From a virus (Duplodnaviria; Heunggongvirae; Uroviricota; Caudoviricetes), in IMG/VR virus record IMGVR_UViG_2529293223_000010: a stretch of DNA of 33,187 nt. One strand, written 5' to 3'. Shown here in pieces: positions 23,047 through 23,395 of this stretch; position 1 is the stretch's first letter; every line of letters starts with the position of its first letter. The notes beneath the pieces were generated by a model, which worked only from the letters and a program-made list of their open reading frames with translations, was not told the DNA's origin and did no database searches. A program made the position numbers and the translations under genes.

Positions 23047-23121
23047 CTGGAGCGGGCAGCGGGAATCGAACCCGCATCATCAGCTTGGAAGGCTGAGGTA
23101 ATAGCCATTATACGATGCCCG
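23047..23121 (-). tRNA. tRNA-Gly (anticodon UCC)
   Basis: 75 nt, acceptor GCGGGCA/UGCCCGC, discriminator U, anticodon loop CUUCCAA, T-loop UUCGAUU, genomic CCA. Confidence 0.8.
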
Positions 23122-23124
23122 CAT

Positions 23125-23200
23125 ATGGTGCCGACTACCGGAATCGAACTGGTGACCTACTGATTACAAGTCAGTTGCTCTGCCTGCTGAGCTAAGTCGG
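23125..23200 (-). tRNA. tRNA-Thr (anticodon UGU)
   Basis: 76 nt, acceptor GCCGACU/AGUCGGC, anticodon stem ACUGA/UCAGU, loop CUUGUAA, CCA end. Confidence 0.75.
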
Positions 23201-23202
23201 CG

Positions 23203-23279
23203 CTGGCCCACCACCGAGGACTCGAACCTCGCACCGTCAACTTAGAAGGTTGATGCTCTATCCGGATGAGCTAGTGGTG
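23203..23279 (-). tRNA. tRNA-Arg (anticodon UCU, reads rare AGA)
   Basis: 77 nt, acceptor CCACCAC/GUGGUGG, anticodon stem UCAAC/GUUGA, loop CUUCUAA, T-arm CGAGG-UUCGAGU-CCUCG. Confidence 0.75.
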
Positions 23280-23280
23280 G

Positions 23281-23357
23281 TTGGTGGCCCTTGCTGGACT
23301 TGAACCAGCGACCTGGCGATTATGAGTCGCTCGCTCTGACCAACTGAGCTAAAGGGC
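23281..23357 (-). tRNA. tRNA-Ile2-like (anticodon CAU, probably lysidine-modified to read AUA; elongator Met not excluded)
   Basis: 77 nt, acceptor GGCCCUU/AAGGGCC, anticodon loop CUCAUAA, T-arm GCUGG-UUCAAGU-CCAGC resembling recalled ileX. Confidence 0.7.
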
Positions 23358-23365
23358 CGGAGGCA

Positions 23366-23395
23366 GAATAATAACCATATGTCATCACATCTGCA
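23366..23395 (-). promoter_or_regulatory. sigma70-like promoter for the tRNA cluster (TTGCAG-N17-TATTAT)
   Basis: Minus-strand -35 at 23390..23395 and -10 at 23367..23372, about 9 nt upstream of the tRNA-Ile 5' end. Confidence 0.45.

Follow-up and report, generated by a model that had tools for sequence, protein, structure and literature searches.

Lambdoid phages are already known to carry minor transfer RNA (tRNA) genes between the gene for the late antiterminator Q and the lysis genes. In phages SfI, Sf6, ST64T, PS3 and P21, genes for tRNA-Asn(GUU) and/or tRNA-Thr(UGU) lie immediately downstream of Q and a rare-codon rationale has been given for them, with SfI over-using the codon ACA relative to S. 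flexneri (PMC3636060). The Shiga toxin (Stx) phages (e.g. Stx2a_F349, 933W type) carry the ileZ-argN-argO cluster, encoding Ile2, Arg-UCG and Arg-UCU and followed by the stx genes. Here, we analyze a further example of this arrangement, a cluster of four tRNA genes (Ile2, Arg-UCU, Thr-UGU and Gly-UCC) in IMG/VR virus record IMGVR_UViG_2529293223_000010, a 33,187-nucleotide (nt) stretch of Caudoviricetes prophage DNA whose full length is called the window throughout. With a probability of roughly 0.65, we propose that the cluster is a self-contained tRNA transcription unit within the late operon, supplementing scarce host tRNAs for codons used heavily by phage genes.

The window cluster shares with its Stx phage counterpart a location downstream of Q and upstream of late cargo or lysis genes, the same strand and an Ile2 gene in first position, and differs in its other tRNAs and in the presence of an isrK-C4-ORF6N module between Q and the tRNA genes. 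Slot and proposed role are also the same as in SfI, Sf6, ST64T, PS3 and P21, but the tRNA sets differ, no Ile2, Arg or Gly gene being reported in those phages (PMC3636060). The minor-tRNA genes ileX/ileY, argU, thrU and glyT of E. coli K-12 have the same anticodons as the window cluster but are scattered over the chromosome, thrU and glyT residing in the thrU-tyrU-glyT-thrT-tufB operon with tyrU between them, whereas the window genes are spaced 1-3 nt apart behind one candidate promoter. The concept of 'morons', autonomous promoter-gene-terminator units inserted in lambdoid late operons, is credited to Hendrix and colleagues. Similarly, the window unit consists of a terminator, a promoter, cargo and further terminators within a late operon, and is predicted to be autonomous; unlike in morons, the cargo is tRNA and not a protein gene.

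Four intact tRNA genes form a compact cluster

The tRNA genes that ARAGORN identifies in the window number exactly four and share the minus strand:

23358-23282, minus strand: tRNA-Ile2, anticodon CAU (ARAGORN; RF00005, 70.5 bits)
23280-23204, minus strand: tRNA-Arg, anticodon UCU, of phage lineage with a C1-G72 acceptor end (ARAGORN; RF00005, 56.4 bits)
23201-23126, minus strand: tRNA-Thr, anticodon UGU, near-copy of host thrU (ARAGORN; RF00005, 69.8 bits)
23122-23048, minus strand: tRNA-Gly, anticodon UCC, same sequence as host glyT (ARAGORN; RF00005, 64.9 bits)

All four exceed the gathering threshold of 29 bits of the Rfam tRNA model RF00005. They are separated by A, GC and TAT, i.e. by 1, 2 and 3 nt. 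Every gene encodes its 3' CCA and possesses a 7-nt anticodon loop with U33 and A37 (CUCAUAA in Ile2, CUUCUAA in Arg, CUUGUAA in Thr and CUUCCAA in Gly). The original prediction, made from the sequence of the window, had named four genes of these isotypes 1 to 3 nt apart. ARAGORN and comparison with host genes return the same isotypes, the measured spacers agree and the covariance model, proposed there as a check, rejects none of the genes. Its span of 23047-23395 was right in location and one base off at each end, and the strand had been left unstated. We conclude that the four-tRNA cluster is real, its genes intact and its isotypes clear.

The CAU gene is most similar to Ile2 genes, with 71/77 positions identical to K-12 ileY, 69/77 to ileX and 74/77 to Stx phage ileZ, as compared to 54/78 for metT and 48/78 for metZ. 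It carries C4:G69 and C5:G68 together with A73. Base pairs 4:69 and 5:68 are major identity elements for E. coli TilS (PMC11947777); they are U:A and A:U in metT and G:C and G:C in metZ. Based on its closeness to ileY, ileX and ileZ and on the TilS identity pairs, we assign the gene to Ile2, the lysidine type of the ileX/ileY class, and predict lysidine conversion of C34 and charging with Ile. A Met identity is ruled out by the same two lines of evidence. In E. coli FDAARGOS_944, the Prokaryotic Genome Annotation Pipeline (PGAP) labels the same sequence tRNA-Ile. At the top of its anticodon stem the window Ile2 has an A27:C43 mismatch, found in ileZ as well, where host ileX and ileY have G27:U43.

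The remaining genes differ in their closeness to host genes. tRNA-Gly is identical to glyT over 75/75 positions, and tRNA-Thr matches thrU at 74/76, the sole differences being two D-loop positions, with the same anticodon arm. The Arg gene matches argU at only 58/79 positions (73%) and is homologous to Stx phage argN (anticodon UCG; 64/77). By these identities, the cluster is a mosaic of two phage-lineage genes (Ile2 and Arg) and two near-copies of host genes (Thr and Gly).

A 601-nt block of the window is found unchanged in RefSeq genomes, where PGAP annotates tRNA-Ile, -Arg, -Thr and -Gly. Parts of the cluster occur at 88-94% identity in 359 phage records and the full four-gene version is present in 38 of 103 related IMG/VR loci; at a coverage of at least 80%, no cultured-phage record contains the full version.

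A promoter in fixed register precedes the cluster in related phages

Directly upstream of the first tRNA gene lies one candidate promoter:

23396-23368, minus strand: sigma-70-type promoter candidate, -35 TTGCAG at 23396-23391, 17-nt spacer, -10 TATTAT at 23373-23368

The -10 element ends 9 nt before G1 of tRNA-Ile2 and the intervening 9-nt stretch, TCTGCCTCC, is G+C-rich. A G+C-rich stretch between the -10 element and the start is typical of stable-RNA promoters under stringent control. The elements TTGCAG-N17-TATTAT are thus present as originally described, while our promoter scanner picks the adjacent register TTTGCA-18-TATTAT with a 9/12 match.

To compare related loci, we searched IMG/VR with a pattern lying wholly within the Ile2 gene and dereplicated the 70-nt upstream sequences to 43 contexts. 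A promoter was counted as in register if TTGnnn was followed after 16-18 nt by TAnn[A/T]T and the -10 element ended 9-10 nt before G1 of the tRNA. Such a promoter is found in 31 of the 43 contexts, compared with a mean of 0.27 and a maximum of 2 in shuffled sequences, and information content across the contexts is highest at the TTG and TA..AT hexamers. In phage 689R5 and an Stx2a phage, TTGCAA-17-TATTAT is kept in the same register as the window's TTGCAG-17-TATTAT, although the remaining upstream sequence cannot be aligned. The dedicated promoter originally claimed draws its support from relatives, the window sequence alone giving a match at chance level. Together, these comparisons support a sigma-70 promoter belonging to the cluster, which could be active in the lysogen and would then allow expression of the tRNAs without prophage induction. 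A literature search for a mapped promoter or lysogen expression of ileZ, argN or argO returned nothing usable.

The -35 region ATTGCGTGGTT of the phage cluster promoters is also found upstream of K-12 ileY (locus L005; NC_000913.3, about 2785700-2785900). There, ileY is followed by a decayed remnant of the gene that occupies the second position in phage clusters (..ATCAGGAAGAG..CTCGATGGCGGTC..). The common -35 region and this remnant suggest that ileY is what the host has retained of a former prophage tRNA cluster.

Terminators flank the cluster within the late operon

Three terminator-like structures surround the promoter and the tRNA genes:

23476-23446, minus strand: intrinsic terminator, hairpin plus U-run, between the ORF6N gene and the tRNA promoter (fold)
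22789-22762, minus strand: first downstream terminator-like hairpin, 7-bp stem plus U-run (-10.7 kcal/mol, z = -2.1)
22435-22399, minus strand: strong downstream terminator-like hairpin, 10-bp stem plus U-run, 40 nt before the holin start codon (-17.3 kcal/mol, z = -3.0)

The upstream terminator, GAGCCCGC-UUUAU-GCGGGUUUUUUU, has a predicted stability of -18.7 kcal/mol (z = -4.1), matched by 0 of 200 shuffles, in line with the original statement that the cluster follows a terminator. Among related contexts, terminator-like hairpins that are not homologous to each other are found no more than 220 nt upstream of the -35 element in 13/30 cases (1.2 in shuffles) and no more than 400 nt downstream of the last tRNA gene in 34/61. 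This recurrent terminator-promoter-tRNAs-terminator layout has the appearance of an insulated unit inside the late operon.

The surrounding genes place this unit on the late strand, between a Q-like late antiterminator gene and a lysis cassette:

25234-24944, minus strand: YbcO-family gene
25067-24393, minus strand: gene for a DUF1133 protein with a weak Phage_antitermQ match, Q-like late antiterminator (PF06576, E=7e-108; PF06530, E=8.8e-6)
24396-24367, minus strand: promoter match TTGACT-18-TATATT, 10/12, at the stop codon of the Q-like gene (promoter scan)
24360-24286, minus strand: isrK with its own terminator (Rfam, 77.8 bits)
24259-24175, minus strand: C4 antisense RNA (Rfam, 68.7 bits)
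24123-23566, minus strand: ORF6N-domain, antirepressor-type gene upstream of the cluster (PF10543, E=7.5e-20)
23047-22369: spacer of about 680 nt from tRNA-Gly to the holin gene, no annotated gene in the matching RefSeq locus
22368-21195, minus strand: lysis cassette of holin (22368-22153, PF04971), lysozyme (22153-21656, PF00959) and Rz (21671-21195, PF03245)

The original placement between the terminator of the antirepressor gene and the lysis genes is correct with respect to order, but the cluster does not adjoin the lysis genes, from which it is separated by the 680-nt spacer with its two terminator-like hairpins. The RNA module at 24396-24175 (minus strand), which also contains a c4-a1b1 Rfam match (52.9 bits), is likely the late-promoter region downstream of the Q-like gene. 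A 10/12 promoter opens the module, at the point where the DUF1133 Q-like gene has its stop codon, so that isrK occupies the place expected for a short PR'-tR' transcript.

This context raises the alternative that the cluster has no working promoter of its own and that its tRNAs are made solely within the Q-antiterminated late transcript starting at 24396-24367, leaving them silent in the lysogen. The location on the late strand between the Q-like and lysis genes would fit such a scheme, as would the better promoter match (10/12) further upstream and the chance-level match of the tRNA promoter in the window. The fixed-register promoter of related contexts, the terminator often found immediately upstream of it and the occurrence of its -35 region ATTGCGTGGTT at K-12 ileY, outside any late operon, argue against it. 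Because the promoter is conserved, we disfavor expression from the late operon only and regard this alternative as unlikely.

We also considered whether the tRNA promoter could itself be the late promoter PR', which is ruled out: Stx phages have a separate TTGACA promoter and terminator between Q and the tRNA promoter, and in the window a 10/12 promoter and isrK directly follow the Q-like gene. In E. coli FDAARGOS_944, the Q-like gene lies immediately 5' of the same cluster and the upstream terminator segment immediately 3' of the Q-like gene. The segment between the ORF6N gene and the tRNA promoter of the window may thus represent the PR'/tR' region of the FDAARGOS_944 phage, where the Q-like gene directly precedes it. 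A second isrK-type module in this segment was rejected, the only match being sub-threshold (19.9 bits) with no convincing alignment.

The spacer downstream of the cluster contains a long hairpin of about 90 nt at 22842-22936. Rfam gives no above-threshold match to a known small RNA (sRNA) in the 680 nt between tRNA genes and holin, and its weak microRNA-precursor matches correspond to this hairpin. In relatives, the sRNA STnc100 (RF02076), absent from the window, is located about 260 nt downstream of the tRNA cluster (L063, 2138-2317; L119, 4546-4738). A CTTTTCAGTCTGCGATGATGGG motif immediately following tRNA-Gly is also conserved in many relatives and in L063 is upstream of the STnc100 match.

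Codons read by the cluster are rare in the host and enriched in prophage genes

To analyze codon usage, 6,065 codons from the prophage open reading frames (ORFs) and ipaH, leaving out insertion sequence (IS) elements and the TrkH-family pseudogene, were compared with 14,725 codons of 41 K-12 genes. In the K-12 set, AUA is used 2.4, AGA 1.2, ACA 5.4, GGA 6.0 and AGG 0.7 times per 1000 codons. No synonym of AUA, ACA or GGA is used less often than these codons themselves, and among Arg codons AGG alone is rarer than AGA, confirming in these genes the original claim that AUA, AGA and ACA are rare and GGA is low in usage.

Relative to K-12, the prophage and ipaH are enriched 7.0-fold in AGG, 5.8-fold in AGA, 3.2-fold in AUA, 2.4-fold in GGA, 2.4-fold in CGA, 2.2-fold in CGG and 2.2-fold in ACA. 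The four codons for which a usage comparison had been suggested (AUA, AGA, ACA and GGA) are therefore all enriched, by 2.2- to 5.8-fold. AGG, AGA, AUA and GGA occupy ranks 1-4 of the 61 sense codons and ACA rank 7; with CGA and CGG completing the top seven, the four tRNAs cover five of them. The ipaH gene alone contains 6 AUA, 4 AGA, 9 ACA and 4 GGA in 571 codons.

A supply unit of this kind could operate as follows. The sigma-70 promoter would start transcription 0-4 nt before tRNA-Ile2, yielding one precursor that contains all four tRNAs. As inferred from established E. coli tRNA processing, RNase P would cut each 5' end and 3' exonucleases would trim the 1-3-nt spacers, the CCA being already encoded. 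TilS would turn C34 of the CAU tRNA into lysidine, enabling it to decode AUA. Four minor tRNA pools would be raised as a result: Ile2 for AUA, Arg-UCU for AGA/AGG, Thr-UGU for ACA and Gly-UCC for GGA/GGG. The boosted tRNAs would match codons used 2-7 times more in phage genes and ipaH than in core genes, and translation of these genes may benefit. The upstream terminator would insulate the unit while the two downstream terminators would keep constitutive tRNA transcripts off the holin and lysis genes. In an intact relative growing lytically, Q-modified polymerase that started at the promoter after Q would pass the terminators, raising tRNA output late in infection.

Several observations weigh against this proposal. 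Within the window, the 9/12 tRNA promoter is unexceptional, as 4.5 kb contain 7 promoter-like sites versus 5.6 ± 2.1 in shuffles, and the related contexts are of common ancestry, meaning that promoter conservation overstates independent support. The rare codons CGA and CGG have no cognate tRNA in the cluster but are enriched to a similar degree as ACA and GGA, and the codon match consequently reflects in part a general codon bias of foreign DNA. The Gly and Thr genes duplicate host genes, restricting any effect of theirs to dosage. Lastly, with so many IS elements in the prophage, the tRNAs may have become dispensable for its late genes.

The cluster in the context of tRNA nucleases

tRNA-Thr(UGU) is the main target of P2 Old in P2-lambda interference, with rescue by phage Thr-UGU tRNAs (PMC12445682). 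PARIS AriB cuts tRNA-Lys(UUU), Thr(UGU) and Asn(GUU), and PARIS is neutralised by phage variants (PMC12409363). The cluster might accordingly serve in inter-phage conflict by resupplying tRNAs destroyed by host or prophage tRNA nucleases, notably tRNA-Thr(UGU), the prime target of P2 Old (PMC12445682) and one of the prime targets of PARIS AriB (PMC12409363). Moreover, a Thr-UGU, Asn-GUU or Lys-UUU gene is frequent at this site in lambdoid phages (PMC3636060 and loci analyzed here), and in the Lys-UUU gene of E. coli CE0026f, the U39 required in the AriB site is replaced by G39.

The features of the individual window genes speak against such a role. Escape is associated with altered CNG motifs or stem length for Old (PMC12445682) and with changes at U39/A41 for AriB (PMC12409363). 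The anticodon arm of the window Thr gene, ACUGA-CUUGUAA-UCAGU, is that of host thrU with both CNG motifs and the UAAUCA site kept. This rules out the Thr gene as a variant escaping P2 Old or AriB and leaves only a dosage effect. Gly is the same as glyT, and Ile2 and Arg-UCU are not named as preferred targets in the available text of either paper (PMC12445682, PMC12409363). We therefore find a resupply function doubtful.

The second position of the cluster, occupied in the window by Arg-UCU (23280-23204), is variable among relatives. Loci L003, L163, L063, L119 and L008 and about 50 others carry a gene with a near-invariant backbone (acceptor CCGCCAC, D arm and T arm) and differing anticodon arms. 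Stx phages have Arg-UCG (argN) in this position and E. coli CE0026f has Lys-UUU with the loop CCUUUAA, C33 and G39. A sub-lineage with a shorter D loop and variable region possesses 5-6-nt loops, of which 17 different sequences are found in 57 loci, and one gene, identical in all other positions, is found with four different loops. Even at E = 1, the Rfam tRNA model finds none of these short-loop forms, and ARAGORN assigns them assorted or undefined anticodons. In an alignment of second-position genes, most variation falls in the anticodon arm and hardly any in the acceptor, D and T arms. These features could indicate an escape tRNA or decoy whose anticodon arm is under diversifying selection against PARIS/Old-type nucleases, the window Arg-UCU being one allele, an explanation we rate as improbable. 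If it were true, the second-position RNA would be more than a plain codon-supplementing tRNA. The variable second position might be the sole new element found here and merits a separate look, since tRNA-Thr(UGU) has come to the fore in phage-phage conflict through recent studies of P2 Old and PARIS.

The cluster remains intact in a decayed prophage

The element hosting the cluster is a lambda-like prophage that has decayed and is now defective. It is interrupted by four IS600-type (IS3 family) copies, pairwise identical at no fewer than 1154 of 1157 positions, and by one IS4:

1365-1547: sRNA CssrB, just upstream of ipaH and divergent
1676-3391: ipaH (NEL E3 ligase) effector gene, at one end of the element
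5191-6347, 14886-16042, 25464-26620 and 30811-31967: IS600-type copies
13519-14847: IS4
16039-16896: truncated portal gene beside an IS600-type copy
19320-20827: trkG-like gene of the TrkH family of potassium transporters, split into two ORFs, lying between Rz and the terminase genes
31983-32453: truncated integrase gene
32581-32725: ryeA/ryeB (SraC/SdsR) sRNA locus, at the other end of the element

With the ryeA/ryeB locus and a truncated integrase gene at one end and ipaH at the other, the prophage is inserted at the ryeA/ryeB hot spot. The c4-a1b1 / isrK / C4 module is present in two copies, each followed by an ORF6N-domain gene (24396-23566 and 28881-28080), and the ORF of the 28881-28080 copy also has an Ash-like N-terminus. 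A hok/sok-type locus at 27655-27977 combines the sok antitoxin RNA (CssrC, 96 bits) with an overlapping 70-amino acid ORF on the same strand.

Given this state of decay, the cluster could be an inert passenger, intact merely due to recent acquisition of the prophage and contributing nothing at present to host or phage. The IS600-type copies, the IS4, the split TrkH-family gene and the truncated portal and integrase genes are compatible with this view, as is the duplication of host genes by two of the four tRNAs. Conversely, disruption of neighboring genes has spared the four tRNA genes, their promoter and the terminators, the same 345 nt are unchanged in 20 loci and the apparent cluster relic at K-12 ileY suggests that a host can keep such genes. 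Overall, we consider an inert cluster improbable and favor a self-contained unit supplying minor tRNAs.

Implications for lysogens

The promoter comparison makes clusters of this type look like insulated units, possibly active in the lysogen. If the cluster is constitutively transcribed, even a prophage defective in particle formation would still raise the dosage of argU-, thrU- and glyT-type tRNAs and of Ile2. This may be relevant to Shigella and enteroinvasive E. coli, in which horizontally acquired virulence genes such as ipaH are rich in the matching codons.

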